A stretch of DNA of 64,000 nt from Vicinamibacteria bacterium (GCA_965215615.1 OZ244068.1:1648223-1712222), one strand, 5' to 3'; positions 14,579-64,000 are shown, counted from the first letter of the stretch. Notes: generated by a model not told the origin, from the sequence alone. Made by a program: numbers and translations.

Positions 14579-15540
14579 GACGAGTCCTCTAGATGGTTCT
14601 TGGCGAGTCCGGCCGCAAATGCGAGCGCCGGATCCCGACGTTCGGAATCGAAAAAGCCGATCGGATCGAGAACGGCTGGCTCTCCACGGGCAAGCGGCCG
14701 GAGCACTTCGTGGATTTCCTTCTGCCCCGCCCCGCCGCCACTCAGACGCACGGAACACGGCGGAGCGAGTCCGGCCTCGGCCAGCGCTTCCGCGAGCGCA
14801 GCAGCGACGCGCTTCCCGAGCGGGGATTCGGAGAAAGCCTCCTCGGAGCCGGTGCCCACGCCCCCACCCGGAGCCTGGACGCTCGCCGCCAGATCGGCCC
14901 AGGGCACCGCATCCCCGCCCGGAGACGGCGATACGAAGCGGAATACGTGGACCGCCGCGTGGGAAGCGCCCACTTCGACGATCGAGATCGGTTGCTCCCC
15001 GACCGCCCGGGAGTCGCCGAGCCGGTTCTCGAGCTCCCAGGCGGCGAGCAGGCCGTACGGTTCGATCTCCACCCGTCGGGGCGCGAGACCGGCTCGCGCG
15101 ACCGCCCGTCCGTGGCTCAGAACCAGATCACGGCGCGCCGCGCCAAAAACGACGCACCTGCCGCCCTCGCCGTTCCACGCCCGACCCCGCTCGAAATCGA
15201 ACAGCAAATCCTGCATGTGAAACGGGATGTGCCGGGCCGCTTCGGCCTCGACCGCCTGCCGCAAGGAGCCTTCCTCCCCGGCGGAGCCTTCCGGCAGGAC
15301 GAGACGCTTGACCAGGTACGCCCTGCCGCCGACTCCCACCGAAGCCGTCCGGCTCCGGACTCCCAACCTGCCGACGAGGCGCTCCAGGGCATCGCCGGCG
15401 GCTTCCCCATCGAGTACCGCGCCTTCCCGCACCACCCCCGAAGGAAGCGGCTCGCTCCCGGCAGCAACCAGGCGGATTTCGGTCCGCTCCCGGGCGAGCG
15501 CCACCAGCTTCACCGAGGACGCACCGAAGTCCACGCCCAC
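14575..15540 (-). CDS. pilM: type IV pilus assembly ATPase-like protein PilM (actin-like)
   Basis: 'GVDFGASSVKLVAL' PilM/FtsA-like N-terminus; start uncertain (GTG at 15538-15540 just below the conserved 80-nt element, or ATG at 15618 inside it). Confidence 0.75.
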   Translation of the reverse strand: MGVDFGASSVKLVALARERTEIRLVAAGSEPLPSGVVREGAVLDGEAAGDALERLVGRLGVRSRTASVGVGGRAYLVKRLVLPEGSAGEEGSLRQAVEAEAARHIPFHMQDLLFDFERGRAWNGEGGRCVVFGAARRDLVLSHGRAVARAGLAPRRVEIEPYGLLAAWELENRLGDSRAVGEQPISIVEVGASHAAVHVFRFVSPSPGGDAVPWADLAASVQAPGGGVGTGSEEAFSESPLGKRVAAALAEALAEAGLAPPCSVRLSGGGAGQKEIHEVLRPLARGEPAVLDPIGFFDSERRDPALAFAAGLAKNHLEDSS

Positions 15541-43400: not shown

Positions 43401-46400
43401 TGAGCTGGACGGCCTCGAGCAGCAACGGCATCACGAAGCACCAGGTGCGCAGCGGATCGGGCGATCCGCTCGTCTGGGGGAGTTGGACGGACATCGCGAA
43501 CAGCGCCAGTATCACGAGCCACACGGTGACGGGGCTGACGAACGGGACGGAGTACAGCTTCCAGGTGCGCGCGGTGGCGACGGCGGTGCTGGGTGTGACG
43601 TCGGACACGGCGGTCGCGACCCCGAGGGGTGCCGCGGGCGTGACGACGACGCAGCCGAGCGACCGGCAAGTGACCGAGGGTGACACTTCGGACACGGCGA
43701 CCTTCACGGTGGAACTCGACACCCAGCCGTCGAGCGATGTCACGCTGACGGTCGAGGCTGTCGCCGGGCTGGAACTCGACGGCCCGGACGGCGCCACCGC
43801 GTTCACGGCGAGCGAGGCGCTGACCTTCACGAGCAGCAACTGGGGCACGGCGCAGACGGTGACGGTGCGCGCCACGGACGACAGTGTTGACAGGCCCAGC
43901 GGGGGCGATCTGACCGTGAGCTACTCGATAGCATCGTCGGACAGTGGCTACAACTTGCTCTTCGGTGTGGCCGCCCTCGTCACCGTCATCGACAACGACC
44001 CGACCGCGGTGACCCTTGCGGGGGCCGCCGGGGACATCACCGAGGGCGAGACGAAGGACTTCACCGTCACGCTGGGCGTGCGCGGTCTGGTGAGCGGCGA
44101 GACGCTCGGGGTGCCGCTGACCTTCACCGGTGGCGCGACGCGGGGCACGGACTACACGACGGCGTGTCCCTCGTCGCTGCCGACCGGGGTGACGTGTAAC
44201 GACCTGAACACGGCGGCGACTCCGACCGTGACCTTCACCGGGCCGAGCACGGGGGAGACGGCGCGGACGGTGACGCTGACGCTGAGTGCGGCGACGGACA
44301 ACACGGCCGAGACGGGCGGCGAGACGGTGATGATCGGCCTCGGCACGCTGACGGCTACCGGTCTGGAGGGCGGGGCGAGCGGCACGGGCAGTCTGGCGGA
44401 CTTCCGGATCACCGACCCGTCGGCGACGGACACGACGGTACCGACGCTTTCGATCTCGGGAGTACCGGGGACGATCAGCACGAGGGCGGCGTTCACGGCG
44501 AACTTCACCTTCAGCGAGTCGGTGACGGACTTCGATACGAACGACATCACGGTGACCGGCGGGAGCAAGGGCACGCTCTCGGGCAGCGGGAGGAGCTACC
44601 GGATGCGGATCACGCCGACCGGCGGGGTGAACGTGGTGGTGACGGTGCGTCGAAATGCGGCGACCGACGGCACGAACCGGGGCCCGGCGGCGGCGGTGTC
44701 GCGGACCGCGACCTGGCGTGCCCCGAGTCCGCCGCCGCAGCAGCCGCCAGCGGAGGAAGACGACGACGATCCGCCTTCTTCCGGTGGTGGCGGCGGTGGT
44801 GGGGGTAGTACCCCGTCCCTCCCCTCGGCTTCTCTGTCCGCCGTCTCGGTGAGCGCGGGGCAGATGGTGATCGAGGGCGGCGAGGCGCTGTTCCGGATCA
44901 CCGCGAGTCCGGTGCCGAGCGACGAGATCACGGTGCGGGTGCGGGTGTCGGCGACGGGCGACTTCGTGGACGGGGTGCAGCTCGGCGAGCGGCTCGTCAC
45001 GCTCTCGGCTTCGGCGCCCACGGCGAGTCTGCGGGTAGCCACCATCGATGACCGCCGGAACGAGGCGGACGGGACGGTGACGGTGACGGTGCTTTCGGGC
45101 GAGGACTACCGCCTGTCGCAGGCCTCGGCCTCGCTCGCGGTCACGGACGACGACACGCCCGCGCTGGTCCTGACTCCGGAGACGCTGACGGTGGACGAGG
45201 GCGGCAGCGGGAACTACCGGGTGGCGCTCGCCACCGAACCCGCCGGCGATGTGACGGTGAGCATCGCGGGCACGGGTGAGGTGACGACGGCGCAGAACAC
45301 GCTGACCTTCACCGCGGGGAACTGGAACGTGGCGCAACCGGTGACAGTGTCGGCGGGGCAGGACGCGGATGCGGCGGACGACCGGGCGAGACTGGATCAC
45401 CGCGCGAGCGGCGGCGGCTACGACTCGGTGACCGGCAGCGTGGCGGTGACCGTCATGGACGACGACACGCCGGGCCTGATCCTGACTCCGGCGGCGCTGA
45501 CGCTGGCGGAAGGCGCGAGCGCGAGCTACACGGTGGCACTCGCCACCGAGCCGACGGGGAACGTGACGGTGAGCATCGCGGGCACGGGCGATGTGACGGT
45601 GGACCGGAGCACGCTGAGCTTCACCGCCCGGAACTGGAGCGCGGCGCAGACGGTGACGCTCTTCGCGGCGCGGGACGAGGATGTGGCGAACGACAGCGCG
45701 ACGCTGGCGCACCACGCACGGGGCGGTGACTACTCATCGGTCACCGGCAGCGTGGAGGTGACGGTGACGGATGCGGGCGCGGCGGTGGTGTCGGCGCATC
45801 TGGCACGGTTCGGCCGGACGGTGGCGGAGCAGGCGCTCGACGGGATCGCGGGAAGGCTGCGGGCGCCGCGCACGGCGGGGATGCAGAAGACGCTCGCAGG
45901 TCCCCGCCTGAACGTTCCGCGCGAAGGAGATACGGCGCAGGGCACGATGCACGCCGAGGCGCGGAGGACCGGCTTCGAGAACGAGTACGAGAGCCAAAAC
46001 CGCGACCTGCTGCACCTCCCGAACGCCCGGGAAATGCTGCTCGGGTCGAGCTTCACGCTCACGACCCAGGAGGCGGAGGGAACCGGGGGCAGCTTCGCCT
46101 TCTGGGGCCGGGCGAGCGCGAACCGCTTCGACGGCGCCACGAACGACGGAGCCACGGCGATCGGCCTCGACGGCGAGGTGCTGACGGGTCTCGTGGGCGC
46201 GGACTATGCGCGGGGCGACTGGCTCTTCGGCCTGGCGCTGACCCACAGCCTCTCCGAGGGGGGCTACACCAGCGAAGGTGCCAGCGGCGGCAAGGTGGAT
46301 GCGTCGCTGACGGCGGCGCTGCCGTATGCGTCGATCCAGGCGAACCCGCGGCTGAAGCTCTGGGGTGCGGGCGGCTACGGCATCGGCGAGGTGACGCTCA

Positions 46401-47212
46401 AGACCGGAGGCGAGAGCCACCGGGCGGACACCGACTGGACGATGGCGGCGGCGGGAATACGGGGAGACCTGCTGGATCCGGCGGGCGGGCCGCTCGCGGT
46501 AGCGGTGATCGGCGACGGACTGTGGACGCGGAGCACATCGGATGAGATCGCCGCGCTTTCGACGGCGGATACCTTCGTGACCCGGCTGCGGCTCGGGGTG
46601 GAGGCCAGCTACGACTTCAACTTCGACGGCATGGGCGATCTCACGCCGCGGGTGGAAGCGGGCGCCCGCCACGACGGGGGCGATGCGGAGACCGGGGCCG
46701 GGATGGATCTCGGTGTCGGAATCAACTGGAAGGCACCGGTCTTCGGATTGAGCCTCGATGTCGCGGGACGGATGCTGATCCTCCACGAGAACGAGGACTT
46801 CGCGGACCGGGGGATTTCGGCGGCGGTGGTCTTCGACCCGAACCCGGAGAGCGAGCGGGGGCCGTCGCTTTCGCTGCGCCAGGCGATCGGCGGGAGCGCC
46901 GACGGGGGGATCGAGGCGCTGTTCGCGACGACGACCCCACTCGGCGACGGCGGGAACATCGGGAGCGGAGCGGGAATGCGACGGACGCTTGAGACCGCGT
47001 ACGGCTTCTCCGCCTTCGGGGGGCGCTTCACGGCGAGTCCGCACGCCGAGGTGGACTTCACGGAGCGGGCGCGGGACTACGCGCTCGGCTGGCGGTTCGT
47101 GCCGCACAAGCTGGCATCGGACCTCGCGTTCGGCATCAAGGCCACCCGCCGGGAAGGCGAGACCCTGGCCCCGGTGCACGTCTTCGGGGTCGAGGCCACC
47201 GTGCGCTGGTGA
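34409..47212 (+). CDS. giant (4267 aa) autotransporter-like surface adhesin with FN3, Ig-like and Calx-beta-like repeat arrays and a C-terminal outer-membrane beta-barrel
   Basis: Single 12,804-nt ORF; signal peptide ending AEAQT; >15 FN3-like modules ('TITKYQVR...GTEYSFQVRAV'); Calx-beta-like 'VTVVDNDPTTVTLAG' modules; Ig-like 'PTVAITGIPAKINN...' modules; last ~450 aa autotransporter-type barrel ending 'VEATVRW'. Confidence 0.9.
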   Translation: MRGVRGWFRGRVALSCRSLRGVLAAALLFGIATAAEAQTTVTFVSNLNSEGGTDNANTFRDRLAQSFTTGASSGGYLLSSVEIYLGRNAYVGGTPVVVIRADSSGDPGDVVVTLTNPGSYPGRQDRDGGTAIFTAPAGTTLAASTTYWVVINDEDRSLFWASAYSKNHTTTGLPGWSMGGTKIRRQGATNWATFDDLLPMELSGTVVTASGPDAPANLQAVVSSGQVELTWDDPSDDTITKYQYQQRTPPSTGTWGEWTDISNSDEDTTDHTVTGLTNGTEYEFGVRAVAGSTNGTAATVSATPVAPPAAPTSLTARAGATQVTLSWTDPGNATITKYQVRYGAGLTTDSGFSWGTWADVSSSSATTTSATVTGLTNGTEYTFGVRAVGLSGDGAEATVSATPLASGAPAKPTGLTATAGGSSVTLSWTAPSGTITKYQVRQGTGDPVMWGAWADITGTTSHTVTGLTNGTEYSFQVRAVANTVLGAMSDTASATPNAPPAAPAGLKAEAYPAEIRLEWTEQTDDTITGYQYQTRARSEGDWGDWSGWSNVPLGEVGEDDKVFSFSGKSYYKVADLTNGTEYGVRIRAVAGTVPGAASAIVTGTPNVRPLAPTGLSATAGDGQVSLTWDDPSNAAITKYQVTYEVVATSVPATEDVPVNGATTSHTVTGLVNGTLYSFELVPFAGTVSGPSSGKVRATPTAPAGLTLTQPDDRQVDEGDTADTATFTVALRSLPAADVMVTVTAPAGLELDGPDAGGVFASSEDLAFTTANWNSAQTVTVRATDDSTDSPSGREEVIAWSATSTDTDYSGLKGDAATVTVVDNDPTTVTLAGAAGDVTEGGTKDFTVTLGRGLVSGERLVVPLTFGTGTGTATRNTDYTVACPSPLPDGAGVVCANLNTGNAALTFAGPSMGETLKEVTLTLSAASDNTTETGGETVIIGLGTLNASSGTGLEGGASGTDSLADFKITDPDASVPTVAITGIPAKINNTNALTATFTFSEAVTGFEKADITVTGGTAGTFSATSTTVYTLGITPDGDANVVVTVAANSATDGTNMGPASAESATAVWDETAPTVEITGVPGKISNRDAFTVTFSFSETVTGFDTDDVSVTNGDKSAFSGSGSSYTVVVTPNADADVTVTVAAGGATDGLNTGPANAVSATATWDASVPTVEISGVPKRITTRAAFTVTFTFSESVTDFVTGDVTVTNGDKSSFTGSGSSYTVVVTPNADADVTVTVDANSATDGTNTGPTADVVATAVFGAPAAPTVTATAGNGQVTLSWTDPSDDTITEYEYQQREEGGTWPNSWTDIANSASLTEYAVTSLTNGTTYEFRVRAVSGTVTSPASSVVTATPLAATAPGPPRDLRVAPGDGQVVLNWRVPGTNADAITKYEFRQGTGDPLAWGAWGDASGTTTSHTVTGLTNGTEYSFQVRAVANTVLGAMSDTVEATPNPVPAAPTNFTATKGTASGAIALSWTAPSGTITRYEYRLRPVGGDWPQSWTRLTVLVTSFTVGSQTDGTEYEIELRAVNDSGAGAAASATATPLDPTAAAAPTSFTATAGSGQVALAWTAPSGTITKYQVRQGTGDPVVWGAWADITGTTSHTVTSLTNGTEYSFQVRAVTGTSVLGAMSATATATPTAAPGVTISVTDASVSEADQTDTATFTVVLNTEPSSGLVVVSVDASGAPGLELDGPDAPTAFSNAEVLTFTTTNWNSPRTIRVRATSEATDNPSGREETITWTATATADTDYQNLTGDAATVTVVDNDPTTVTLAGAAGDVAEGATKTFTVTLGRGLVDGETLGVPLAFTGTATRGTDYMTACPTTLPTGVTCNDLDDTSLTPTVTFTGPTSGATARTVTLTLSAASDNTTETGGETVIIGFGTLTATGLEGGTSTTDSLADFKITDPDASVPTVAITGIPAKINNTNALTATFTFSEAVTGFEKADIAVTGGTAGTFSATSTTVYTLGITPDGDANVVVTVAANSATDGTNMGPASAESATAVWDETAPTVEITGVPGKISNRDAFTATFSFSETVTGFDTDDVSVTNGDKSAFSGSGSSYTVVVTPNADADVTVTVAAGGATDGLNTGPANAVSATAVWDETAPTVDITGIPAKINNTNALTATFTFSESVTGFAKSDITVTGGTAGAFGGSGTTYTLAITPTSGSNVVVTVAANSATDGTNMGPASAETATATWDASVPTVGITGVPARISGTSDLTATFTFSEDVTGFVKNDITVTGGTAGTFTESSSTVYTLVITPDGDANVVVTVTADSATDGLNMGPASAETATAVWTALVFNPAAVTVVEEASATYTVELSSQPDGNVTVTVSGASGEVTFDTDSTTPGTQTTALTFTTTTWDDAQTVTVLAAADGDTANDSATLTHTASGGGYGSVTGDVEVTVTDNDTPGLVLDPTSLTVAEGGSGTYTVALATQPTASVTVTVAGASGEVTFDTDGDTGGNQNTLTFTTSDWGTAQTVTVSAGQDNDADDDSATLTHSASGGGYGSVTGNVAVTVTDDDTASVVTTEPDATATEGSTTDEATFTVALNTRPSSDVTVTVTAPTGLTLDGPDSATTFTSSEGLTFTSTNWSTAQTVTVRATDDNDDSPIGRELTVTYAVTSSDSGYSGLSGDAATVTVVDDDPTTVTLAGTAGDVVEGGTKTFTVTLERGLVNGETLPVPLTFGGDATRGTDYTTACPTTLPTGVTCANLDSGTPTVTFTGPSTGATATTVTLTLTATTDNTAEAGGESVVIGLGTLNASSGTGLGGGASGTDSLADFDITDPDASAPTLEISGVPKRITTRAAFTVTFTFSESVTDFVTGDVTVTNGDKSSFTGSGSSYTVVVTPNADADVTVTVDADSATDGTNTGPPADVVATAVFGAPAAPASLSATAGNAAVTLSWTDPMDDTITGYEFRQGVQSSPVTWGSWTPITNSDKDTTSHTVTGLTDGTEYYFQVRAVSDAVMGEPSAEENRDAVVTPVAVNAPAAPTGLGATAGNGQVALSWTASSSNGITKHQVRSGSGDPLVWGSWTDIANSASITSHTVTGLTNGTEYSFQVRAVATAVLGVTSDTAVATPRGAAGVTTTQPSDRQVTEGDTSDTATFTVELDTQPSSDVTLTVEAVAGLELDGPDGATAFTASEALTFTSSNWGTAQTVTVRATDDSVDRPSGGDLTVSYSIASSDSGYNLLFGVAALVTVIDNDPTAVTLAGAAGDITEGETKDFTVTLGVRGLVSGETLGVPLTFTGGATRGTDYTTACPSSLPTGVTCNDLNTAATPTVTFTGPSTGETARTVTLTLSAATDNTAETGGETVMIGLGTLTATGLEGGASGTGSLADFRITDPSATDTTVPTLSISGVPGTISTRAAFTANFTFSESVTDFDTNDITVTGGSKGTLSGSGRSYRMRITPTGGVNVVVTVRRNAATDGTNRGPAAAVSRTATWRAPSPPPQQPPAEEDDDDPPSSGGGGGGGGSTPSLPSASLSAVSVSAGQMVIEGGEALFRITASPVPSDEITVRVRVSATGDFVDGVQLGERLVTLSASAPTASLRVATIDDRRNEADGTVTVTVLSGEDYRLSQASASLAVTDDDTPALVLTPETLTVDEGGSGNYRVALATEPAGDVTVSIAGTGEVTTAQNTLTFTAGNWNVAQPVTVSAGQDADAADDRARLDHRASGGGYDSVTGSVAVTVMDDDTPGLILTPAALTLAEGASASYTVALATEPTGNVTVSIAGTGDVTVDRSTLSFTARNWSAAQTVTLFAARDEDVANDSATLAHHARGGDYSSVTGSVEVTVTDAGAAVVSAHLARFGRTVAEQALDGIAGRLRAPRTAGMQKTLAGPRLNVPREGDTAQGTMHAEARRTGFENEYESQNRDLLHLPNAREMLLGSSFTLTTQEAEGTGGSFAFWGRASANRFDGATNDGATAIGLDGEVLTGLVGADYARGDWLFGLALTHSLSEGGYTSEGASGGKVDASLTAALPYASIQANPRLKLWGAGGYGIGEVTLKTGGESHRADTDWTMAAAGIRGDLLDPAGGPLAVAVIGDGLWTRSTSDEIAALSTADTFVTRLRLGVEASYDFNFDGMGDLTPRVEAGARHDGGDAETGAGMDLGVGINWKAPVFGLSLDVAGRMLILHENEDFADRGISAAVVFDPNPESERGPSLSLRQAIGGSADGGIEALFATTTPLGDGGNIGSGAGMRRTLETAYGFSAFGGRFTASPHAEVDFTERARDYALGWRFVPHKLASDLAFGIKATRREGETLAPVHVFGVEATVRW

Positions 47213-54907: not shown

Positions 54908-55168
54908 TTGCGCACCGTGAACCTGCGTTACGCCAAGGCCCACCACTCCCGCCTCGTGCGCGAAGCGGTGAGCGGGCAGCCGTTCGTCATCGCCCGCGCC
55001 GGGAAACCGCTGGTGCGGGTCACGGCCATACCGGAGGAGACCCCGGCGAAGCGACTGATCGGTTGTCTCGACGGGCAGTTCTCGGTTCCCGACGACTTCG
55101 ACACCATGATGGCGGATGAGATCCAGGCGATGTTCGAAGGCAAGCCCAAGGAACCAATCCCGAAATAG
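54908..55168 (+). CDS. Phd/YefM-family antitoxin, orphan upstream copy (TTG start)
   Basis: 'RTVNLRYAKAHHSRLVREAVSGQPFVIARAGKPLVRV...'; ~119 nt identical to copy 2; the ATG is replaced by TTG; no toxin gene follows. Confidence 0.55.
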   Translation: MRTVNLRYAKAHHSRLVREAVSGQPFVIARAGKPLVRVTAIPEETPAKRLIGCLDGQFSVPDDFDTMMADEIQAMFEGKPKEPIPK

Positions 55169-55202
55169 ACTAAGCTGACTGAACTAACCCCGGAGATCCA
55201 CC

Positions 55203-55478
55203 ATGCGCACCGTGAACATGCACCACGCCAAAACCCACCTCTCGCGTCTCGTCCGCGAAGCGGTGAGCGGGCAGCCGTTCGTCATCGCCCGCGCCGGGAA
55301 ACCGCTGGTGCGGGTCACGGCCATACCGGAGGAGACCCCGGCGAAGCGACTGATCGGTTGTCTCGACGGCCAGTTCTCCGTACCGGACGACTTCGACACC
55401 ATGATGGCGGACGAGATTCAGGCGATGTTCGAGGGCAAGTACAAGGGCGTTCTCGATGAGGGACACGAACAGGAGTGA
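55203..55478 (+). CDS. Phd/YefM-family antitoxin (copy 2)
   Basis: 'MRTVNMHHAKTHLSRLVREAVSGQPFVIARAGKPLVRV'; stop overlaps the toxin GTG start (GTGA). Confidence 0.8.
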   Translation: MRTVNMHHAKTHLSRLVREAVSGQPFVIARAGKPLVRVTAIPEETPAKRLIGCLDGQFSVPDDFDTMMADEIQAMFEGKYKGVLDEGHEQE

Positions 55479-55867
55479 AATTTCTTCTCGACACCCACGT
55501 CCTTCTCTGGGCCACGAGCATTCCGGAAAAACGGACCCCGGAACTGCTGGCGCTTCTCGAAGCACCCCGAACGGAGTTGTTTTTCAGTGCGGTATCCATC
55601 TGGGAAGTCGCGATCAAGAACCAGCACCATTCGGGGAACCTCTTTTCTGCCGACACGCTCCGTTCCAGGCTCCTTGAAGTCGGATGCATCGAACTCCCTG
55701 TCACCAGCACCCACGCGGTCGCGATCCGGAACCTCCCTCCGATCCACAAGGATCCATTCGACCGGCTTCTGATCGCCCAGGCTCAGGTAGAAGGAGTCAC
55801 CCTACTGACCGCGGATCGGACCATCGCGCGGTACCCCGGCCCAATCCGCCTGCTCGGGAGGCGCTGA
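55475..55867 (+). CDS. PIN-domain (VapC-family) toxin
   Basis: 'KFLLDTHVLLWA...SIWEVAIK...' PIN acidic residues; GTG start overlapping the antitoxin stop. Confidence 0.8.
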   Translation: MKFLLDTHVLLWATSIPEKRTPELLALLEAPRTELFFSAVSIWEVAIKNQHHSGNLFSADTLRSRLLEVGCIELPVTSTHAVAIRNLPPIHKDPFDRLLIAQAQVEGVTLLTADRTIARYPGPIRLLGRR

Positions 55868-56081
55868 CGCGCGGAGCGTTGCTGATTTCGCCTACGCGAC
55901 GCGGCCTGTCGCGGTGGCCCCGGCTTGATCTGGCGGCAGAGAGGCGGGCCACTCGCTCGGCGATGGCGTGGATGCCATGACGGATCGCCTGACGTTCCTT
56001 GCTGGCGGTCCGCTGCCCGGTGAGGATGAGCCCGGCAAGACTCACCCCGACGGCGAGGATGGCGTAGAACTCGGGGGTCAT
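55797..56081 (-). CDS. possible small membrane protein (hypothetical, weak)
   Basis: ORF with an N-terminal TM helix 'EFYAILAVGVSLAGLILTG'; no clear RBS; overlaps the vapC-like 3' end. Confidence 0.2.
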   Translation of the reverse strand: MTPEFYAILAVGVSLAGLILTGQRTASKERQAIRHGIHAIAERVARLSAARSSRGHRDRPRRVGEISNAPRVSASRAGGLGRGTARWSDPRSVG

Positions 56082-56173
56082 GCGCTGAATCGTACGCCGA
56101 CCCCCCTTTCTGTCAGCACTCGTGAGACACTCGGCCGGATATGGTCAGAACAGTATATCGTCCGCGTCGCCGG

Positions 56174-57679
56174 TCATCGGTCGATGTGCTCTGGGGGCGA
56201 ACCTTTCGGAGGTATCGGAAGAAATCCCTCGTCACCGCTCGTCTGTTCAATACGCCTGTAAATCTCCATCATATTTTCCCCGTAGCGCTTGAGTTGAAGA
56301 TCGCGATCAGCTTGCGCCTCCTGCGATTCGAACTTTTTTTTGACCGACGGAAGTTTCTTCCAATCATCAAGCTCCTTCAGCCCCCCGCGCGTGGCTTCGC
56401 GTACAGCTTCCCACACGATCGGGTTCGTCATGCAGATATTTCTCCAAGGATCTAGTCTCATCTCTTTTCGAATCTCGTCACGTAGTTCTCGCAACGCCTT
56501 TTCTGCTTGAGTGGGATCAAGTCGTTTCTTTTGCTGCCAGTCAACCCGCGCTTTGGCTGACTTCTGTGCCACCCCGGTGTCGCCCGACTCCGCCTTCTGA
56601 CCCGTCTTTCGCACACCGATTCCTTCGGCCGACGTAAGCTTCGCGATGTCCTTGCGCAGACTATCGAGCAGTTCTGCCAGACCGCGTTCGATATGCTCGT
56701 GAACCCTGGCATCGAGCCGACCCATCCGGTCCTTGATTCCAGAATCCAGGCCGTCCAGCCTGGCGCTCCATTCCTTGCGACTCTCGTTCTGCTCCACCGC
56801 ACCTGAGATCTTCCGAAATATGTCTTCGATGCGCTTGTAGATCTTGTGAATCTTTTCGTGTTCTCCGACGACCACAGCCTTGACTTCGTCGTGGACTTTA
56901 CCGACCGTTTTGTGACGCTCTCCAGCAATCAACGCCGCGATCTGATCCGTTATTTCGCTACCTTTCGGCAATTCGTCAAGCGTCTTGATCAGTTCCTGGT
57001 TTTTCTCCTGCCGCTTCTGAAGTTCAACGCGTAATTCCTTCTCGTTCTCCTTCAGCTTGCGAATCGTCTCATCTCGATCTTGAATCTTCTCGAGGAGTTC
57101 TTTGCGGTCGGACTCCGCTCGCTCCCGTTCTTTCGATACAGAACGGGGAGAAGGAAGGTCGTCAACCCTTGCGAGCGCCTCCTGGCACAATTTTTCCAGA
57201 TTTTCGATCTTGTGCTTTTGCGGAAATTCGGGATAGGCCAGGTCCGTCGCATGCAAGATGGCACTGGCCGCAGATCGCAGCATGTGCTTGGTCAGTTGCC
57301 GTGAGTGGTTTGCACAGTTTCGAAGTTCCTGGATATACCAAAAAAGTCGCGAGAGTTCATAGCAGCGACGCTCGATCCATTTCCTATTGATATTGTTGTG
57401 CTTTTCCAGTTTGTCTTCGAACACACCGGGCAATTTCCAGAAGGGCATTCGTCCTTTGGTCGTTTCGATGTCACGGCGCAGGACTTGCAGTGTCTCGAAA
57501 TCCGGGTTCTCTCGTGGATCTCGTACTCTCGGGTTGAAGTTTCGGACACACTTCATTTTGACGAATATATCGACCGTTCTTCGATGAATATCTTCTGCGA
57601 GTTCGATCAGCAGAGTCATATTGTTGGGTTGGAGCAGCTCGTTATAGGCATCTCGGAGCTCCTCGGGTTTCAAGCTCAT
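56174..57679 (-). CDS. 501-aa hypothetical protein: N-terminal HEPN-like domain (Rx4H motif 'RNCANH'), long central coiled coil, C-terminal domain of unknown function
   Basis: GGAGGG SD 7 nt before the ATG at 57677-57679; gene GC ~53% against ~70%; K/E-rich heptad region ~aa 170-330; 'LFWYIQELRNCANHSRQL'. Confidence 0.7.
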   Translation of the reverse strand: MSLKPEELRDAYNELLQPNNMTLLIELAEDIHRRTVDIFVKMKCVRNFNPRVRDPRENPDFETLQVLRRDIETTKGRMPFWKLPGVFEDKLEKHNNINRKWIERRCYELSRLFWYIQELRNCANHSRQLTKHMLRSAASAILHATDLAYPEFPQKHKIENLEKLCQEALARVDDLPSPRSVSKERERAESDRKELLEKIQDRDETIRKLKENEKELRVELQKRQEKNQELIKTLDELPKGSEITDQIAALIAGERHKTVGKVHDEVKAVVVGEHEKIHKIYKRIEDIFRKISGAVEQNESRKEWSARLDGLDSGIKDRMGRLDARVHEHIERGLAELLDSLRKDIAKLTSAEGIGVRKTGQKAESGDTGVAQKSAKARVDWQQKKRLDPTQAEKALRELRDEIRKEMRLDPWRNICMTNPIVWEAVREATRGGLKELDDWKKLPSVKKKFESQEAQADRDLQLKRYGENMMEIYRRIEQTSGDEGFLPIPPKGSPPEHIDR

Positions 57680-57740
57680 CCGCCACCCTCCGAGGTCGTC
57701 AGCAGGGAGCCTTCTTTCACGAGCGCCCCGTAAATTTCCC

Positions 57741-58169
57741 TCATCCTGTCTCTTCGTATTCGTTCAGCATCAACACCGCCTCGCCATGCATGGAGGACGC
57801 GACGGCGTTCGCGAATCGCGAGTCGGCCGTCACTACCTTCGCGCCGACCCGGTGCGCGAGGGCGAGGTACACACAGTCGTACACGGGATGGTCAAGGGAT
57901 AGCGCCAAGCGAACGGCATCCGTGCTGACCGTCTCGTCGCCCGCCCAGCGCACCGGAATGCCAGACAGTTCAGCCATGGCGGTGCTTGCGTGGGCTCGAT
58001 CGATCTCGCCCACCCGCGCCTTGCGCCACAGCGCATTCGCAACCTCGGTCGCCATCAAGCGCGGCGCATGCAGCTCCTGGCCGCTCGCCACCAGTTTTCG
58101 CGCAGCTTCCGAAGTGCGCTCGTCCACCAGCAACTTGACCGCCACGCTGGCATCCATCACGAGACGCAT
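57741..58169 (-). CDS. vapC: PIN-domain toxin VapC
   Basis: 'MRLVMDASVAV...' PIN fold; ATGA overlap with the upstream antitoxin. Confidence 0.8.
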   Translation of the reverse strand: MRLVMDASVAVKLLVDERTSEAARKLVASGQELHAPRLMATEVANALWRKARVGEIDRAHASTAMAELSGIPVRWAGDETVSTDAVRLALSLDHPVYDCVYLALAHRVGAKVVTADSRFANAVASSMHGEAVLMLNEYEETG

Positions 58170-58429
58170 CAGAACCCGTCGCGATGGCCGCGGTCGCGGT
58201 CCTCCCGGATCAGCTCTTCGGCGGGAGTCTGCTTGCTTCCCCTCGTCTTCTCCCGCAGCCGGTCTGATGCCACGAGGAAAGCGGCCCGTTTCCCGGCCAC
58301 GTCGTCGTCGGACGCGCTCTCCAGAATGTGGCGCACCTCACCCTCGAGCGACCGATTGCTCGAGGCGGCGCGACGCTTGAGACGCTCCACGATGTCATCG
58401 CGGAGTTGTCGTACGAGGATCGTCGCCAT
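58169..58429 (-). CDS. vapB: RHH (FitA/StbC-like) antitoxin VapB
   Basis: 'MATILVRQLRDDIVERLKRRAASSNRSLEGEVRHIL'; ATG at 58427-58429. Confidence 0.7.
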   Translation of the reverse strand: MATILVRQLRDDIVERLKRRAASSNRSLEGEVRHILESASDDDVAGKRAAFLVASDRLREKTRGSKQTPAEELIREDRDRGHRDGF

Positions 58430-58504
58430 GGGTTCGTTCCACGAAGCTATCACATGGATAGCGTGCTCCCTGCGCTCGATGGGCGGCGGTCGCACTCACG
58501 CTGC

Positions 58505-61500
58505 CTACTCCGGGATCGTGAGCAGCGAGCCCTCCTTCGCGAGCGAGCCGTCCGCCACCAGCCCGTCGAGCACCTGCCGGAATCGCTCGACAACCGGCTT
58601 CGTCACCCGCTCGAAGCCGAACAGACGCGCCGCCTCCCGGGCCGCAGCTTCCGGCTCGATCCCGTAGCTCACCCGCGCCGCCTGGATCAGCGCGGTCGCG
58701 ATCTCTTCTTTCGCGATCCGCTCCGGCTTGCGGAGGGATGGGGGGAGCTCTCCGCTGCGAACGCGGACTTCCGCAGTCGCGCTCTCTCGCCGCCAGAGGA
58801 ATCCTTCCGCATCCATCCGGCAGAGGCCGCTGCGCTCCGCTTCCGCTACGCCGAGCCGCATCTGCTCGCGGATTCGGGACCCGGTGCGCCCGACACCCGT
58901 CGCCTCGCGGATGCGCAGCAGGACTTCCTCCTCGTGGACCGGACTCTCCACCGCGACCACTTTCCCGATCCAGTCGGCGAACCGGGCGGCCGGCGCCTCG
59001 TGGAGCGGGGTGGCCAGGATGAGAATTCCGAGATCGGCCACTTCGTAGGGGCGGGTGGGCACCGCGACTTCCCGCTCGGCCTCCGGGGCGCGATCGAGCG
59101 GCTTCGCCCGCTGCGGCGGTGCAGGCGGGGCCGGGCCGGTCGTCTCGGAGGCTGCCCGGATAGCCGCCTCCACCTTCTTCATCTCGGTATCCGGGTCGCG
59201 GAACCAGTCGGTGCTCCAGATGCGGTGGATCGTCCAGCCCAGCCCTTCGAGCACCTGCTGGCGGAGCCGGTCGCGATCGCGGGCGGAGCGGGAGCTGTGG
59301 TAGGTCGCGCCGTCACACTCGATCCCGAGGAGGTACCGGCCCGGCTGGCGGGGATCGCGCACCGCCAGATCGATGAAAAAGCCCACCGAGCCGACTTGGT
59401 GCTCCACCTCGAAGCCGAGCGCCCGCACCCGGTCGGCGACCGCTTCCTCGAAGGGAGAATCGGCACCGCGCCCGGTGGTCCGGGGGGTGTCCAGCTTGCC
59501 GGTTTCGGCATATTCGAGGAAGGTCTTGAGCGCGGCGATGCCCCGCGCATCCGAACGCCGCAGATCGAGGTCCGCGCCGGTGAAGTTGCAAAAGACCACC
59601 GAACGCCGCCGCGCCCGGGTGATCAGCACGTTCAGGCGGCGCTCCCCGCCCTCGCGGTTGAGCGGGCCGAAGTTCATCGGCAGGTAGGTTCCTTCGACCT
59701 TGCCGTAGCCGACGCTGATCAGGATCACGTCCCGTTCGTCGCCCTGGACGTTTTCGAGGTTCTTCACGAAGAAGGGCTCTTCCGGGTGCGCGCCGAAGAA
59801 TCCCTCGCCGCCGGATTCCTTCCGTCGCAGGATGTCCACCTCGTCCTCGATGCGCCGCGCCTGGGCGTTGCTGAAGGCGGCGACCCCGAGCGTGAGTCCG
59901 GGTGACTCGCGGGCGTGCTCCATCACCGCCTGCGCGATCCCTTTCGCCTCGGCGATGTTGATCCCCTTGCGTTCGTAGTGGTTTTCGGGGTTCTGGCGGA
60001 AGAGGAGCCCCGCGTCTTTCTTCCCGGCATCGGGGCTCGGGAAAACGATCAACCGATCGTCGTAGAACTCGTGGTTCGAGACCGCGATGAGCGATTCGTG
60101 CCGGCTGCGGTAGTGCCACTTGAGCATCCGCTCCGGCGCACCCTGCGCCGAGAACATCCCGAGGATGCTCTCCATGTCCGCCGTCAGGCTCCCCTCCTCT
60201 TCGTCCTCGTCCACCATCCGGTCGAAGAAGCTGGTGGGCGGGAGCTGCTTGCTGTCGCCGACCACCACCGTCTGCGCGCCGCGAAGAATCGCCCCGAGCG
60301 CGTCCACCGGCCGCACCTGACTCGCCTCGTCGAAAACCACCAGATCGAAGCGGATCGACCCCGGCGGGATGTACTTGGCGATCGAAAGCGGGCTCATCAT
60401 GAAGACCGGCTTGATGCTCTGGATGGCGCGCCCCGCCTCCCGCATGAGACGCCGGACCGGAAGATGGCGGCTCTTCTTCTGGAACTCCCGCTTGAGCACC
60501 CCGAGCTGGCCGCCTCCCTCGTGGCGCGGCAGTCGCTTCCAGTGCTGTTCGGCGATCCGTGCCTGGTTCTCGTGGAATTGCTCGGTATCCAGCTCGCGGA
60601 ACCGCTCGACGACCCCCGCGTGGGTCGCCCCGTCGAACTCGGCGAGCGGGAGGCGATCACGGAACGCGATGTCCAGCCAGCCGCCATAGCAGGCGTGCTC
60701 GAAGCGCGCGGTCAGGTTCCGGGCTGCATCCGCTGAGGAAGCGGCGAGGGCCGCCACCTCGGGGATTCCCTCCTCCGCCCCGCGGTGTTCGTACTGGTTG
60801 AAGCGGACCACATCGAAAGCGGAGTCGGCATCCGCGTGAGCTTCCTGTAGCCAGCCCCCGAGAGCGCCGAAGTTTCGATCCGCGAGCGGCCCCTCGTCAC
60901 CGAGCCGGTCAGGGCGCACTTCGAGAAACTCCTCGAGATCCCCGAGCGCCCGCCCGAATGCCTCTCTGGCGGCATCCGCGGCTTCGGCGGAAGTTTCGAG
61001 CTCAGGGAGGTCGGGCCGGTCGTCGAGAAGGGCGTGGATTTCGGGAGCGATCCGCCCCTCGGCCAGATCCCGGTGAAGCGCCGCGAGCCATTCCGCCGCC
61101 TCGGCGAAACTCCGGTATGTCTCCACCCGGTCCCCGAGACGGAGCCCGGGAAACAGCCGTTCCACGAGGTCGGCAGATTCCGCGACCTCTCGCCGCAGCC
61201 GACGGGCTTCGAGGATCGCGTCGAGGAGCTCGATCTGCTCGGAAACGGCCCCCGTTGCGGTATCGCGGCAGAGCCCGCCCACTTGGCGGCTCGCCTCCCG
61301 GAATCGTCCGGAAAGGAAGCGCCACCACTTGCTACCGACCGTGCGAAGCGTCTGGCGGATAGCCAGCACGTCCTGATCCCAAGCCTCGGGGATCAGAACA
61401 CGGTCGCGCTCTTCGCGGATTTCGGCGTAGCGCCGGGCGGCCTCTGCCACCAGTCCGGCCGGCTCGGAATCGCGATGCCTCGCCCCGAGCAGATCCGGCG

Positions 61501-63196
61501 CTTCCCGGACCCGACGGGCAGTCCGTGCCAGTCGCTCCAGATCCTCCCGCGTCAGCGCGGAAAACCTTTCCTCGCAACCCATCCGGCCGCGGAGTGCTTC
61601 GGAGCCTTCTTCGAGGCGGCGAAGGCTCGCCGTCACGCTCGCGACGAGCTCCCGGAGCCGGGGCGCATCGCTCGGGAGGAAGTTCCGACGGCCCGAGATC
61701 CACCAGCGGTGCCCGCCCGGAAGCCCGATCGTCGCCACCAGGGCCTCGATCTCCCGGACGAGCGCCCGGCGGCGAGCGAAATCCCCGGCAGTCCAGGAAG
61801 CCAGGTTTTCGATCCCGAGCGCGGCCTCTTCCGGATCGAGCCCTTTGGCTCTGAGCGCGGTGATCCGCCCCACGAGGTCGTGGGGAGTCAGCCGGCTCTC
61901 CCCGACCGGAGTGCCCACCGCTTCCGAATAGTCGTTGAGCCGCTCGCGGCTCGCCTCGAGGAGGGCGCGTCGCTCGCCCGTGTCCTGGGTCTTCGGGCAT
62001 CCGAGCGCGAGGGTCCGCTTGAGCTCGTCGAGCACCGCCCGCTTGTTCGTCTGGTGGCTGTGGAGTTCGAGGCACGCCTCCCCCAGATGGACGGAGTCGA
62101 GGCGGCGCTTCACGACCTCGAGCGCGGCCATCTTCTCCGCGACGAACAGGATCGTCTTGCCGCGGGCCAGCGCCTCGCCGATCAGGTTGGTGATCGTCTG
62201 GGACTTGCCGGTTCCGGGCGGCCCCTGGATGACCAGATTGCGTCCGGCCATCGCATCGAGCACCGCGAGCGCCTGCGAGCTGTCGGCATCCACCACCGGA
62301 TGGAGGCCAGCCTCCTCGACATCCCCCGTCCCCTCCCCGCCTGCCTCGAAATCGGGAGGCTCTTCCCGAAAACCCGCCTCGCTGAAGAGCTTCCGGGCGA
62401 CCGGGTGCTCCGAAGGCCCGGCTCCCTCCGGCCAGCTCGCCGGGTCCAGATCCTTGTAGATCAGCAACTTGTTGAAGGAAAAGAAGTCGAGATGGATGTC
62501 GTTCCGCTCGACCGACCAGCCGTTCTGGCTCTCCACCGCGCGTTCGACTTCGGTCAGGTACGTCTCCACGTCCAGCTCGTCTTCGGCCGGCATCCCGGGG
62601 AAACGCACGTCGAAATCGGTTCGCAGCTTGGTTTCGAGCGAGAGATTGGGTTCGATGTCTTCTCCGGTCCAGGAGAGCTTGAAACTCTCGCGACCACCCG
62701 ACCGGACGAGCTGCGCCGGCAGCAGGATCAGAGGGGCGCAGCGGTCGGCTTCGCTCTGATCGGATTCGCGCCAACGGAGCGTTCCGAGGGCGAGGAAGAG
62801 GAAGTTCACCCCCTGCTCTTCGGTCATGAGGCGTGCCTGCCTCGAGGTCTCGCGGAGGCGCAGGTTGAGGTTCGGGAGGGAGAGCGCGGTCTGGAGCTTG
62901 TTGTCGGTGTGCCTCGCGGCAGGTTCCGCATCGTCCGGCGGCTCGGCAAGGATCGCGAGCAGTTCCTCGGGAGCATCCGAGCGGGTTTCTTCCGTGTCTT
63001 CCCCGGGGAGGAAATACATGACGCGCTCCTCGCGGACCAGAATCCGGAACACCTCCCGGGAGAGTTCGTCCACGATCCGAACCCCCCGTCGCCTTCCCGG
63101 ACGGAAGCTCAGTAGCGGGTTGCGAAACGAGAAGTCGAGAACGTCGCGGCGGGAGCCCTCGATGGCGAGCGCGACCGGATCGGCAGCAGAGGACAT
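58505..63196 (-). CDS. 1563-aa DUF4011 / Upf1-DNA2-like SF1 helicase / DUF559 (Vsr-like PD-(D/E)xK) nuclease / DUF3320 fusion protein
   Basis: Walker A 'GPPGTGKSQTI', motif II 'VVFDEASQ', 'VVVGDSKQLPPT', motif VI 'NVLITRARR'; C-terminal 'FFIDLAV...LGIECDGATYHSS' nuclease core. Confidence 0.85.
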   Translation of the reverse strand: MSSAADPVALAIEGSRRDVLDFSFRNPLLSFRPGRRRGVRIVDELSREVFRILVREERVMYFLPGEDTEETRSDAPEELLAILAEPPDDAEPAARHTDNKLQTALSLPNLNLRLRETSRQARLMTEEQGVNFLFLALGTLRWRESDQSEADRCAPLILLPAQLVRSGGRESFKLSWTGEDIEPNLSLETKLRTDFDVRFPGMPAEDELDVETYLTEVERAVESQNGWSVERNDIHLDFFSFNKLLIYKDLDPASWPEGAGPSEHPVARKLFSEAGFREEPPDFEAGGEGTGDVEEAGLHPVVDADSSQALAVLDAMAGRNLVIQGPPGTGKSQTITNLIGEALARGKTILFVAEKMAALEVVKRRLDSVHLGEACLELHSHQTNKRAVLDELKRTLALGCPKTQDTGERRALLEASRERLNDYSEAVGTPVGESRLTPHDLVGRITALRAKGLDPEEAALGIENLASWTAGDFARRRALVREIEALVATIGLPGGHRWWISGRRNFLPSDAPRLRELVASVTASLRRLEEGSEALRGRMGCEERFSALTREDLERLARTARRVREAPDLLGARHRDSEPAGLVAEAARRYAEIREERDRVLIPEAWDQDVLAIRQTLRTVGSKWWRFLSGRFREASRQVGGLCRDTATGAVSEQIELLDAILEARRLRREVAESADLVERLFPGLRLGDRVETYRSFAEAAEWLAALHRDLAEGRIAPEIHALLDDRPDLPELETSAEAADAAREAFGRALGDLEEFLEVRPDRLGDEGPLADRNFGALGGWLQEAHADADSAFDVVRFNQYEHRGAEEGIPEVAALAASSADAARNLTARFEHACYGGWLDIAFRDRLPLAEFDGATHAGVVERFRELDTEQFHENQARIAEQHWKRLPRHEGGGQLGVLKREFQKKSRHLPVRRLMREAGRAIQSIKPVFMMSPLSIAKYIPPGSIRFDLVVFDEASQVRPVDALGAILRGAQTVVVGDSKQLPPTSFFDRMVDEDEEEGSLTADMESILGMFSAQGAPERMLKWHYRSRHESLIAVSNHEFYDDRLIVFPSPDAGKKDAGLLFRQNPENHYERKGINIAEAKGIAQAVMEHARESPGLTLGVAAFSNAQARRIEDEVDILRRKESGGEGFFGAHPEEPFFVKNLENVQGDERDVILISVGYGKVEGTYLPMNFGPLNREGGERRLNVLITRARRRSVVFCNFTGADLDLRRSDARGIAALKTFLEYAETGKLDTPRTTGRGADSPFEEAVADRVRALGFEVEHQVGSVGFFIDLAVRDPRQPGRYLLGIECDGATYHSSRSARDRDRLRQQVLEGLGWTIHRIWSTDWFRDPDTEMKKVEAAIRAASETTGPAPPAPPQRAKPLDRAPEAEREVAVPTRPYEVADLGILILATPLHEAPAARFADWIGKVVAVESPVHEEEVLLRIREATGVGRTGSRIREQMRLGVAEAERSGLCRMDAEGFLWRRESATAEVRVRSGELPPSLRKPERIAKEEIATALIQAARVSYGIEPEAAAREAARLFGFERVTKPVVERFRQVLDGLVADGSLAKEGSLLTIPE

Positions 63197-63200
63197 CCGG

Positions 63201-63971
63201 TCAGGCGCGCGCTTCCACGACGACCGTCACCACGTCCACCTCGTTGTATTGCTGGTGGCGGACCGAGGCCGCATGATGGCGGAGAAGACGCAGGGAAATC
63301 TCCTGCTCGGCGGCGACTCCGGAATCACCGAGTGTCAGGAGCTGGTCCTCGAAGTTCGTTTCCGAAGGGGCCGCGACGAACTCCACTTCCACCGAGCGGG
63401 CATCCCCGCGGGCGGTCACCCGGAGCTTGCGGTCCGCTGTCTTGCGGTCCGCTGTCCCGTCCTCCGGAGCGATCAGCAAAAAGGCTTCCTCCCCGCTCGA
63501 ACGAAGGCGCTCCCGCGAGCGGTCGCTCCACTTCCGCCGCTCGGCCCACCGGACGAGGAATTCATCCAGCCGGGGCATCGCCTTCCGGTCCAGCGCGGCT
63601 TCGAAGCGGACCGCGCGGGGGCCGGTCGCGACCAGAAACAGCATCAACAGCAGGATCACCCCTCCGCCAGCGGTCATCCCGTTGCCGAGCAGGGATTCCC
63701 AGAACTCCCCGAAGCGACCCGGAAAGATGGCTCGCGACTGGAAACCCACACCCACCCAGTACGCGACTCCGACCACCGTCGCGGTTCGGAGATCCATGCC
63801 GTCGCGCGACGCGATGCGGAACCCGACCATGAACAGCACCGCGATCAGCACGAAGGTATAGGCGGCGATGACCGGATCCGGAATCGAGACGACGAGCGCG
63901 GTCGCCTTGGGCATGAACGCGAGCACGAGGAAGGCGATCCCGACGTGGACACCCACGAGCCGCGATGCCAC
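63201..63971 (-). CDS. NCS2/xanthine-uracil-permease-like membrane protein C-terminal part with extra cytoplasmic domain (probably extends beyond the window)
   Basis: TM helices 'VVGVAYWVGVGF...GGGVILLLMLFLVATG' typical of nucleobase permease C-termini; the frame may continue past 64000. Confidence 0.45.
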   Translation of the reverse strand: MASRLVGVHVGIAFLVLAFMPKATALVVSIPDPVIAAYTFVLIAVLFMVGFRIASRDGMDLRTATVVGVAYWVGVGFQSRAIFPGRFGEFWESLLGNGMTAGGGVILLLMLFLVATGPRAVRFEAALDRKAMPRLDEFLVRWAERRKWSDRSRERLRSSGEEAFLLIAPEDGTADRKTADRKLRVTARGDARSVEVEFVAAPSETNFEDQLLTLGDSGVAAEQEISLRLLRHHAASVRHQQYNEVDVVTVVVEARA

Positions 63972-64000
63972 CCCGGTGAGCTCGACGAGCGAAATGCTGG

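Follow-up and report, generated by a model that had tools for sequence, protein, structure and literature searches.

Genes and composition of the locus

Four consecutive genes on the minus strand lie near one end of a 64,000-nucleotide stretch of DNA from a Vicinamibacteria bacterium (GCA_965215615.1, OZ244068.1:1648223-1712222), herein called the window, with positions counted from its first letter. They encode a large DUF4011 helicase–nuclease, the toxin–antitoxin (TA) pair VapB and VapC, and a 501-aa protein with a HEPN-like N-terminal domain. An earlier note, made from the sequence alone, had read the four genes as one composite defence system. Their coordinates and those of the other features described in this article are collected in Table 1.

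All four are genuine genes and not chance open reading frames (ORFs): homologues or family matches exist for every one of them, and AlphaFold2 (AF2) models the 501-aa protein with confidence. Their arrangement was confirmed, with a gap of 75 nt, an overlap of 1 nt and a gap of 61 nt at the successive junctions. For vapB, a longer version of 108 aa is possible from a GTG at 58495. The co-transcription that had been proposed for the cluster remains plausible, as the genes are co-directional and a scan for terminator-like sites found none between them; the scan was a generic one and carries little weight either way.

The guanine and cytosine (GC) content is 0.68 in the helicase gene, 0.66 in vapB, 0.65 in vapC and 0.52 in the 501-aa gene, at a value of 0.67 for the whole window. 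At third codon positions (GC3), the corresponding values are 0.84, 0.79, 0.78 and 0.60. The 501-aa gene is compositionally foreign. The earlier description of the cluster as a mosaic island with a falling GC content is correct, and its figures for the helicase and the 501-aa gene were right; merely the 63% given for vapBC is slightly low.

Table 1. Features of the window and of its alignment with the sister locus L001
Feature	Position	Strand	Basis or measure
DUF4011 helicase–nuclease, 1563 aa	58505-63196	(-)	ORF call
vapB, FitA-like ribbon-helix-helix antitoxin, 86 aa from ATG	58169-58429	(-)	PF22513, E=1.5e-13, residues 2-39
vapC, PIN-domain toxin, 142 aa	57741-58169	(-)	PF01850, E=3.6e-13
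501-aa gene, HEPN-like protein	56174-57679	(-)	ORF call; no Pfam match
Copy A, functional helicase 3' end, ending in LTIPE and the stop, four codons shorter than in the sister	58490-58551	(-)	aligned with L001 14649-14710
Copy B, degenerate non-coding relic of the helicase 3' end, 57-62 nt	57670-57731	(-)	blastn, 57 nt, 86% against L001 14649-14705
Segment absent from the sister genome (vapB, vapC, copy B, 501-aa gene)	56100-58493		2.4 kb
Block shared with L001 9197-14706	64000-58494		95.7% DNA identity
Block shared with L001 14724-24693	56099-46159		98.3% DNA identity
Xanthine/uracil-family permease gene, 3' part	63201-64000	(-)	PF00860
Second TA module, convergent with the cluster: a tandem pair of phd/YefM antitoxin genes plus one gene for a PIN toxin	54908-55867	(+)	Pfam PIN and PhdYeFM (L001 gene calls); NCBIfam phd_fam

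The DUF4011 helicase–nuclease

In Pfam, the 1563-aa protein matches DUF4011, the superfamily 1 (SF1) helicase domains AAA_11/AAA_12, MTES_1575 (E=7e-39) and DUF3320 (accessions PF13195, PF13086/PF13087 and PF18741 among them). The motifs GPPGTGKSQT, DEASQ, GDSKQLPPT and NVLITRARR, as well as LGIECDGATYHSS, are all present in its translation. The domains that the earlier note had called are hence correct, with the nuclease being MTES_1575, a Vsr-like restriction-endonuclease fold, and DUF559 reaching only a sub-threshold match.

More than 7900 homologues of uniform length (1580–1660 aa) were found. The best matches, at 67–68% identity, would by themselves point to a Gemmatimonadota (Longimicrobiales-like) bacterium as the probable source of the DNA. 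An alignment of 20 sequences from across the phyla has a mean column identity of 57% and hundreds of invariant columns, and all helicase and nuclease motifs are invariant in it. The distribution is patchy across phyla and includes plasmids; the plasmid and chromid copies are named by PGAP only as "DUF3320 domain-containing protein." In one protein from a Gemmatimonadetes metagenome-assembled genome (P0066), the helicase domains are joined by those of an IS3 transposase (PF00665, PF13276), which is probably due to an insertion sequence that entered, or was fused with, a helicase homologue.

The best family match is PDC-S37 of PADLOC (PDLC05009; E=0, 1808.8 bits), which aligns in one stretch, with residues 8-1558 covering positions 6-1543 of the 1550-position profile. 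By this match the protein is assigned to the PDC-S37 family, as a predicted stand-alone enzyme of the SF1B (Upf1-like) type. PDC-S37 is a single-gene phage defence candidate of PADLOC-DB v2 and is of computational origin only. The best match in NCBIfam is NF058533.1, "anti-phage protein ProA," with 1424.9 bits over residues 13-1530, which is below the cut-off of 1500. Our literature search found no paper describing PDC-S37 and none describing ProA. Hhe is the third related family. Its NCBIfam model NF042953.1 gives 1038.4 bits in three stretches (the best one at residues 772-1342) against an equivalog cut-off of 2000, and its PADLOC model reaches 778 bits over two stretches (with the better one at residues 854-1339). 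Because the scores are below both NCBIfam cut-offs, the protein is best placed in a sister family of Hhe and ProA and as a member of neither.

Gao et al. are said to have described Hhe in 2020 as a single-protein anti-phage system consisting of a DUF4011 helicase and a Vsr-like endonuclease. It is counted among the defence helicases (PMC12278908), and a phage plates less efficiently on cells carrying hhe once one of its genes is knocked out (bioRxiv 10.1101/2024.04.14.589459). The statement in the earlier note that the role of this architecture is not established is out of date, as models for Hhe, PDC-S37 and ProA exist.

VapBC and the 501-aa protein

The vapB stop overlaps the vapC ATG by 1 nt, and the ribbon-helix-helix (RHH) antitoxin is encoded upstream of the PIN toxin. 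The acidic tetrad of VapC is intact (D6, E42, D98 and D116). By these features, vapBC is classed as an ordinary type II TA pair; no specific NCBIfam or PADLOC model matched it.

The family of the 501-aa protein is very rare and has no entry in Pfam, PADLOC or NCBIfam. A word-indexed search found only the protein itself, and phmmer, run exhaustively against 1.84 billion cluster representatives, yielded 26 proteins. Relatives in phage and plasmid collections were not found. The members of the family (370–460 aa) consist of a conserved N-terminal domain, a variable coiled coil and a conserved C-terminal domain that carries the motifs WENICMxxPIV, W and MMxIYRRVE. In the protein of the window, these parts correspond to a HEPN-like region at residues 1–175, with RNCANH at 120–125, a coiled coil at approximately 178–351 and a C-terminal domain at approximately 384–480. 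The AF2 models have predicted local distance difference test (pLDDT) scores of 79.6 (full length) and 90.5 (N-terminal domain), and the latter model is all-alpha.

R120, N121 and H125, forming RNxxxH, are the only invariant columns across 18 N-terminal domains, and the HEPN pattern Rx4-6H is present. The best lenient Pfam match of the N-terminal domain is HEPN_MAE_28990, a weak one (E=0.02, in one of 18 members). Foldseek returned nothing for the full-length model, a search in which the coiled coil probably dominated, and nothing significant for the N-terminal domain. Profile searches of the PDB with the N- and C-terminal domains gave no match. For the C-terminal domain, HRDC of Pfam is matched weakly in one of 22 members (E=0.0049), and hhalign against a RecQ HRDC alignment gives a probability of 52% (P=1.4e-4) over 20 columns only. 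We therefore regard the protein as HEPN-like with moderate confidence, mainly because of its motif, and its C-terminal domain tentatively as HRDC-like. The HEPN identity guessed in the earlier note is plausible in that RNxxxH comprises the sole invariant residues of the domain, while the fold and profile matches are weak or absent. This family is the only really uncharacterised element of the cluster, for which novelty is low overall.

The genes next to homologues of the 501-aa protein were examined at four loci. One homologue follows an AAA_14/DUF4143 ATPase gene, one follows iscS, one lies beside a PLD-like gene and one precedes an MNT-HEPN pair and a UvrD helicase. A DUF4011 helicase adjoins none of the four. 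The last of these loci (L085 1259-4221), with the homologue followed by an MNT (NTP_transf_2) and HEPN TA pair and by the UvrD helicase, looks like a small defence/TA islet.

A variable segment at the helicase 3' end

The closest relative of the window is the sister locus L001, on a 2.9-Mb contig, which encodes an intact helicase of 1567 aa belonging to the same 90% protein cluster (member P0122). The two sequences align on both sides of a 2.4-kb segment, in place of which L001 has 17 nt. This segment holds vapB, vapC and the 501-aa gene. Therefore, an intact helicase exists without its supposed partners. The alignment suggests that the helicase gene, at its 3' end, adjoins a variable slot whose cargo in the window, vapBC and the 501-aa gene, is strain-specific. 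Among the gene calls adjoining the slot, in the window or in L001, no transposase or integrase was recognised, and no tRNA or Rfam RNA was found at the slot. Apart from the two copies of the helicase tail described below, repeat scans of the region returned only short repeats at chance level.

An ORF of 94 codons (MTPEFYAILAVGVSLAGLILTG..., 55797-56081 on the minus strand; L001 approximately 14742-15026) starts just past the insertion junction and has a hydrophobic N terminus. It received no gene call in L001 and may be spurious. The boundary of cDHS1, a region of Pseudomonas aeruginosa considered at the end of this article, likewise has a "conserved small hypothetical gene" adjoining its DUF4011 gene.

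Two features of the flanks had been missed by the earlier note. On the upstream side, the end of the permease gene and the helicase ATG are 4 nt apart (63197-63200; L001 9997-10000), and this junction is the same in the sister genome; the helicase may be co-transcribed with the transporter gene. On the other side lies the second TA module, which is made up of phd genes at 54908-55168 and 55203-55478 and a PIN gene at 55475-55867. Its two phd paralogues are 91% identical in DNA, and the module (phd, phd, PIN) is also present in the sister genome. Downstream, the two genomes have in common the PIN and two-phd module, a sortilin/BNR protein, amidohydrolases and a giant fn3/Big_12 protein. The latter is encoded by a plus-strand ORF at 34409-47212 (4267 aa), and its sister counterpart (L001 23640 onward) is an fn3/Big_12 repeat protein of 5082 aa. 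The number of repeats probably differs between the two genomes, which are approximately 98% identical there.

Genes adjoining the helicase in other genomes

Helicase loci with 8-kb flanks were collected from data holding one genome per species. The 80 loci span Gemmatimonadota, Acidobacteriota, Bacteroidota, Chloroflexota, Planctomycetota, Firmicutes, Pseudomonadota and methanogenic archaea. A tblastn search of all 80 with VapB, VapC and the 501-aa protein gave noise only. The two nearest ORFs on each side were then classified for the 64 loci with an intact helicase ORF. Herein, 126 downstream ORFs were assigned to 122 Pfam families and 129 upstream ORFs to 157. The most recurrent neighbour, MacB/FtsX, occurs six times and in Chitinophaga only. 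No PIN, HEPN or TA family is among the recurrent neighbour families listed for the 64 loci, and most neighbours are housekeeping genes. The genes tightly coupled to the helicase stop vary by locus and include UvrC (Methanobrevibacter), LysE, a DNA methylase and a histidine kinase. PADLOC matches among the 255 neighbours are limited to two methyltransferases, one GajA, one PDC-S32 and one DinG. Large ORFs adjoining the helicase in three loci (L027, L039 and L045) were considered as helicase paralogues, which was ruled out.

A recurrent association of the helicase with TA or HEPN genes was not seen in this survey: the contexts are heterogeneous and mostly housekeeping, without a recurrent partner of either kind. 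This is largely the outcome that the note itself had named as speaking against its proposal.

In Gemmatimonadota, the accessory genes downstream of the helicase differ between loci. They comprise an NYN RNase-like protein (L006 13500-14231), an AAA_16 fragment together with an HSDR_N-like protein (L041 13088-14678) and a YhgA-like transposase (L002 8755-9651). These differences are consistent with a variable slot after the helicase in that phylum as well. In Methanobrevibacter (L066 7530-9278; L076 15117-16874), a full-length UvrC starts 0–6 nt past the stop of a helicase homologue of 2290–2370 aa, a possible sign that part of the family is linked to DNA repair. A UDG gene lies upstream of the helicase in three loci.

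Such neighbours lead to the question whether the helicase is an immune gene at all. It could be a conserved enzyme of genome maintenance or repair that owes its PADLOC status to guilt by association, with the cargo being unrelated to it; we judge this possible, yet rather unlikely. The conservation across phyla is unusually high (57% mean column identity), GC3 is host-like (0.84), and the gene is syntenic in the sister genome together with its 4-nt permease junction. The mostly housekeeping neighbours, with UvrC downstream in Methanobrevibacter and UDG upstream in three loci, agree with such a role, and so do the presence of a DUF4011 gene in the core genome of all P. aeruginosa (bioRxiv 10.1101/2022.11.11.516204) and the bare DUF3320 label of the plasmid and chromid copies. 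In its conservation, composition, synteny and neighbours, the gene suits genome maintenance no less than immunity. However, the protein is kin to Hhe, which serves as a functioning anti-phage system in one study (bioRxiv 10.1101/2024.04.14.589459) and is listed with the defence helicases elsewhere (PMC12278908), and it scores close to the NCBIfam cut-off of ProA. The patchy spread across phyla, including plasmids, moreover fits horizontal transfer.

A relic of the helicase tail upstream of the 501-aa gene

The window has two copies of the helicase 3' end. Copy A is the functional end of the gene, and copy B, a degenerate relic, lies at the junction of vapC with the 501-aa gene. The local alignment score of copy B is 64, as opposed to 13.2±2.2 in 2000 shuffles. 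Translated in the helicase frame, it reads GALVKEGSLLTTSEGGG followed by a stop, and its counterpart in L001 reads GSLAKEGSLLTIPEDGA followed by a stop. The 501-aa gene begins within the end of copy B, as its ATG and the TGA of the copy overlap (ATGA), with a GGAGG Shine-Dalgarno sequence retained upstream. L001 keeps the same Shine-Dalgarno sequence and ATGA, after which come MSL, in different codons, and a stump of 14 codons; the 501-aa protein, too, starts with MSL. Of the tail, the coding portion survives in copy A and the portion for translation initiation in copy B. A third copy at 56100-56173, which would have suggested a cassette array, was rejected, as its score of 14 is equalled by 36% of shuffles.

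Because of the relic, the 501-aa gene was probably once translationally coupled to the helicase. In the simplest history, the 501-aa gene would have stood directly after the helicase gene in this coupled state. vapBC would have been inserted later, with the helicase tail duplicated along with it, and L001 would have lost the cargo or never received it. This order of events is read from two genomes, which do not fix it.

The relic raises the possibility of a two-gene system, in which the helicase and the 501-aa HEPN-like protein form, or formed, a translationally coupled sensor–effector pair and vapBC is a later intruder. A helicase 3' end directly upstream of the 501-aa gene, with its in-frame TGA over the ATG and the GGAGG preserved, speaks for it, and the Shine-Dalgarno sequence, ATGA, MSL and 14-codon stump in L001 are consistent with loss of the gene there. 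We nevertheless regard this pair as improbable. The 501-aa homologue is present at none of the 80 helicase loci, and its own four examined loci lack an adjacent helicase. The family counts 26 representatives as opposed to thousands for the helicase, the gene is compositionally foreign, and the intact helicase of the sister genome does without it. In addition, cargo that came without a promoter and landed at a stop codon would come under selection for coupling even if no functional link existed.

All of these objections hold equally for the model of the earlier note, in which the four genes are one composite system and the helicase–nuclease is a nucleic-acid sensor that controls the PIN and HEPN ribonucleases as effectors. 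Co-directional genes with short junctions and no predicted terminators between them speak for it, as does a domain combination that resembles sensor-plus-effector systems. However, VapB and VapC make up a self-contained TA pair with an overlap of their own, and the GC3 of vapBC (0.78–0.79), compared with 0.60 in the 501-aa gene, suggests separate origins. The arrangement was found at no other locus, neither in L001 nor among the helicase loci surveyed. With a sister helicase that lacks vapBC and the 501-aa gene, 501-aa homologues that lack the helicase at the four loci examined and no recurrent partner at the 64 loci, the composite system is not supported, and we consider it highly improbable.

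Origin and possible function of the cluster

We favour a reading in which the cluster consists of three functionally independent modules that were set side by side by insertion and do not form one system, and we give this a probability of roughly 70%. What the sequences show directly is which domains the proteins contain, that their catalytic motifs are conserved, that an indel and a relic repeat are present, that no partner is conserved and that the 501-aa gene is foreign in composition.

Herein, the helicase would act alone: its SF1B motor would translocate on nucleic acid with ATP, and the C-terminal Vsr-like PD-(D/E)xK domain would cut DNA, which may be that of phages or damaged DNA of the host. 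In VapBC, the RHH antitoxin would neutralise the PIN RNase and autoregulate its expression. The 501-aa protein is a candidate HEPN RNase (RNxxxH) that would dimerise via the coiled coil and bind nucleic acid with its C-terminal domain, thus serving as a lone toxin or as an effector of the abortive-infection type. As strain-specific cargo, vapBC and the 501-aa gene would occupy a slot, small and variable, next to the 3' end of the helicase gene.

Several points weigh against three independent modules. The four genes are co-directional and have no terminator-like site in between. The 501-aa gene appears to have once begun at an ATGA overlap with the helicase stop, an arrangement typical of functionally linked genes. 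A single close sister genome was available for comparison, and the indel cannot be polarised with it. The neighbour survey covers 64 loci out of thousands and relies on crude ORF calling. The HEPN and HRDC assignments are weak, and the biochemical activities, the defence role and the order of the insertions are all inferred.

A bolder proposal, to which we assign slim odds, unites the relic with the cargo slot. The 501-aa protein would be the founder of an undescribed family of single-protein HEPN RNase effectors, composed of RNxxxH, a long coiled coil and an HRDC-like domain that binds nucleic acid. In this lineage, it would have been captured without a promoter exactly at the DUF4011 stop, giving a coupled pair of helicase sensor and RNase effector, and defence cargo would settle preferentially at the 3' flank of conserved DUF4011 genes in phyla that are far apart (Gemmatimonadota and, with cDHS1, P. 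aeruginosa).

With the three-module reading, the comparative data part a tempting composite interpretation from a catalogued single-gene candidate (PDC-S37, Hhe-like) and unrelated TA and HEPN cargo. Conserved DUF4011 helicases may carry the label "defence candidate" partly because they border variable cargo slots, which bears on counting PDC-S37 as immunity in surveys. The 501-aa family, being rare and uncatalogued and having an invariant HEPN-type motif, lends itself to cheap tests of toxicity or phage defence.

Comparison with known defence systems

The helicase–nuclease is closest to PDC-S37, which it matches collinearly over its full length. As in the definition of that candidate, the gene stands alone: it has no recurrent neighbour at the 64 loci, and the sister helicase has no cargo. 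It differs in that, in this bacterium, it behaves as a conserved, syntenic chromosomal gene. From ProA it is distinguished by the first approximately 360 profile positions, which have no counterpart in the 1563-aa protein. With Hhe it shares DUF4011, the SF1 AAA_11/AAA_12 motor and the Vsr-like nuclease in one polypeptide, but it reaches only about half of the NCBIfam cut-off, with the best stretches in the C-terminal part only.

vapBC corresponds to VapBC/FitAB systems, with a gene for a FitA-like RHH antitoxin overlapping that for a PIN toxin with an acidic tetrad, and has nothing unusual. Stand-alone HEPN RNase toxins and abortive-infection proteins include ApeA, AbiD/F-type proteins and HEPN-MNT toxins. 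The 501-aa protein resembles these in its all-alpha domain with RNxxxH as the sole invariant residues and in its stand-alone occurrence in variable contexts, once beside an MNT-HEPN pair. In contrast to them, it combines the HEPN-like domain with a coiled coil of approximately 170 residues and a conserved C-terminal domain, a combination that matches no Pfam, PADLOC or NCBIfam model.

Mokosh consists of an MkoA/MkoC-type helicase with a PLD nuclease that is either a partner or fused to it. The MkoA and MkoC matches of the 1563-aa protein (90 and 51 bits) are confined to the shared SF1 core, at residues of approximately 949–1206, and none of the cluster proteins contains a PLD domain. Hachiman is composed of the HamA (DUF1837) nuclease and the HamB helicase of superfamily 2 (SF2) (PMC12278908). 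No Ham model of PADLOC matched any of the five proteins searched (the four cluster proteins and the permease fragment), and the helicase is of the SF1 and not the SF2 type. The Mokosh- or Hachiman-like character proposed in the earlier note thus fails on the defining components, a PLD partner and HamA/DUF1837.

A further comparison is with cDHS1 of P. aeruginosa, where a large DUF4011 gene that is core in every isolate bounds a variable defence region of lower GC (Johnson et al., bioRxiv 10.1101/2022.11.11.516204). The slot described here is far smaller (2.4 kb versus a mean of 34 kb) and is seen in two genomes only. The combination of conserved flanks with variable, lower-GC cargo is present in one genome pair, a sample too small for the term "hotspot." The likeness lies in a conserved large DUF4011 gene that borders a variable segment of lower GC with defence or TA cargo, and by this analogy the site in the window would resemble cDHS1 in miniature.

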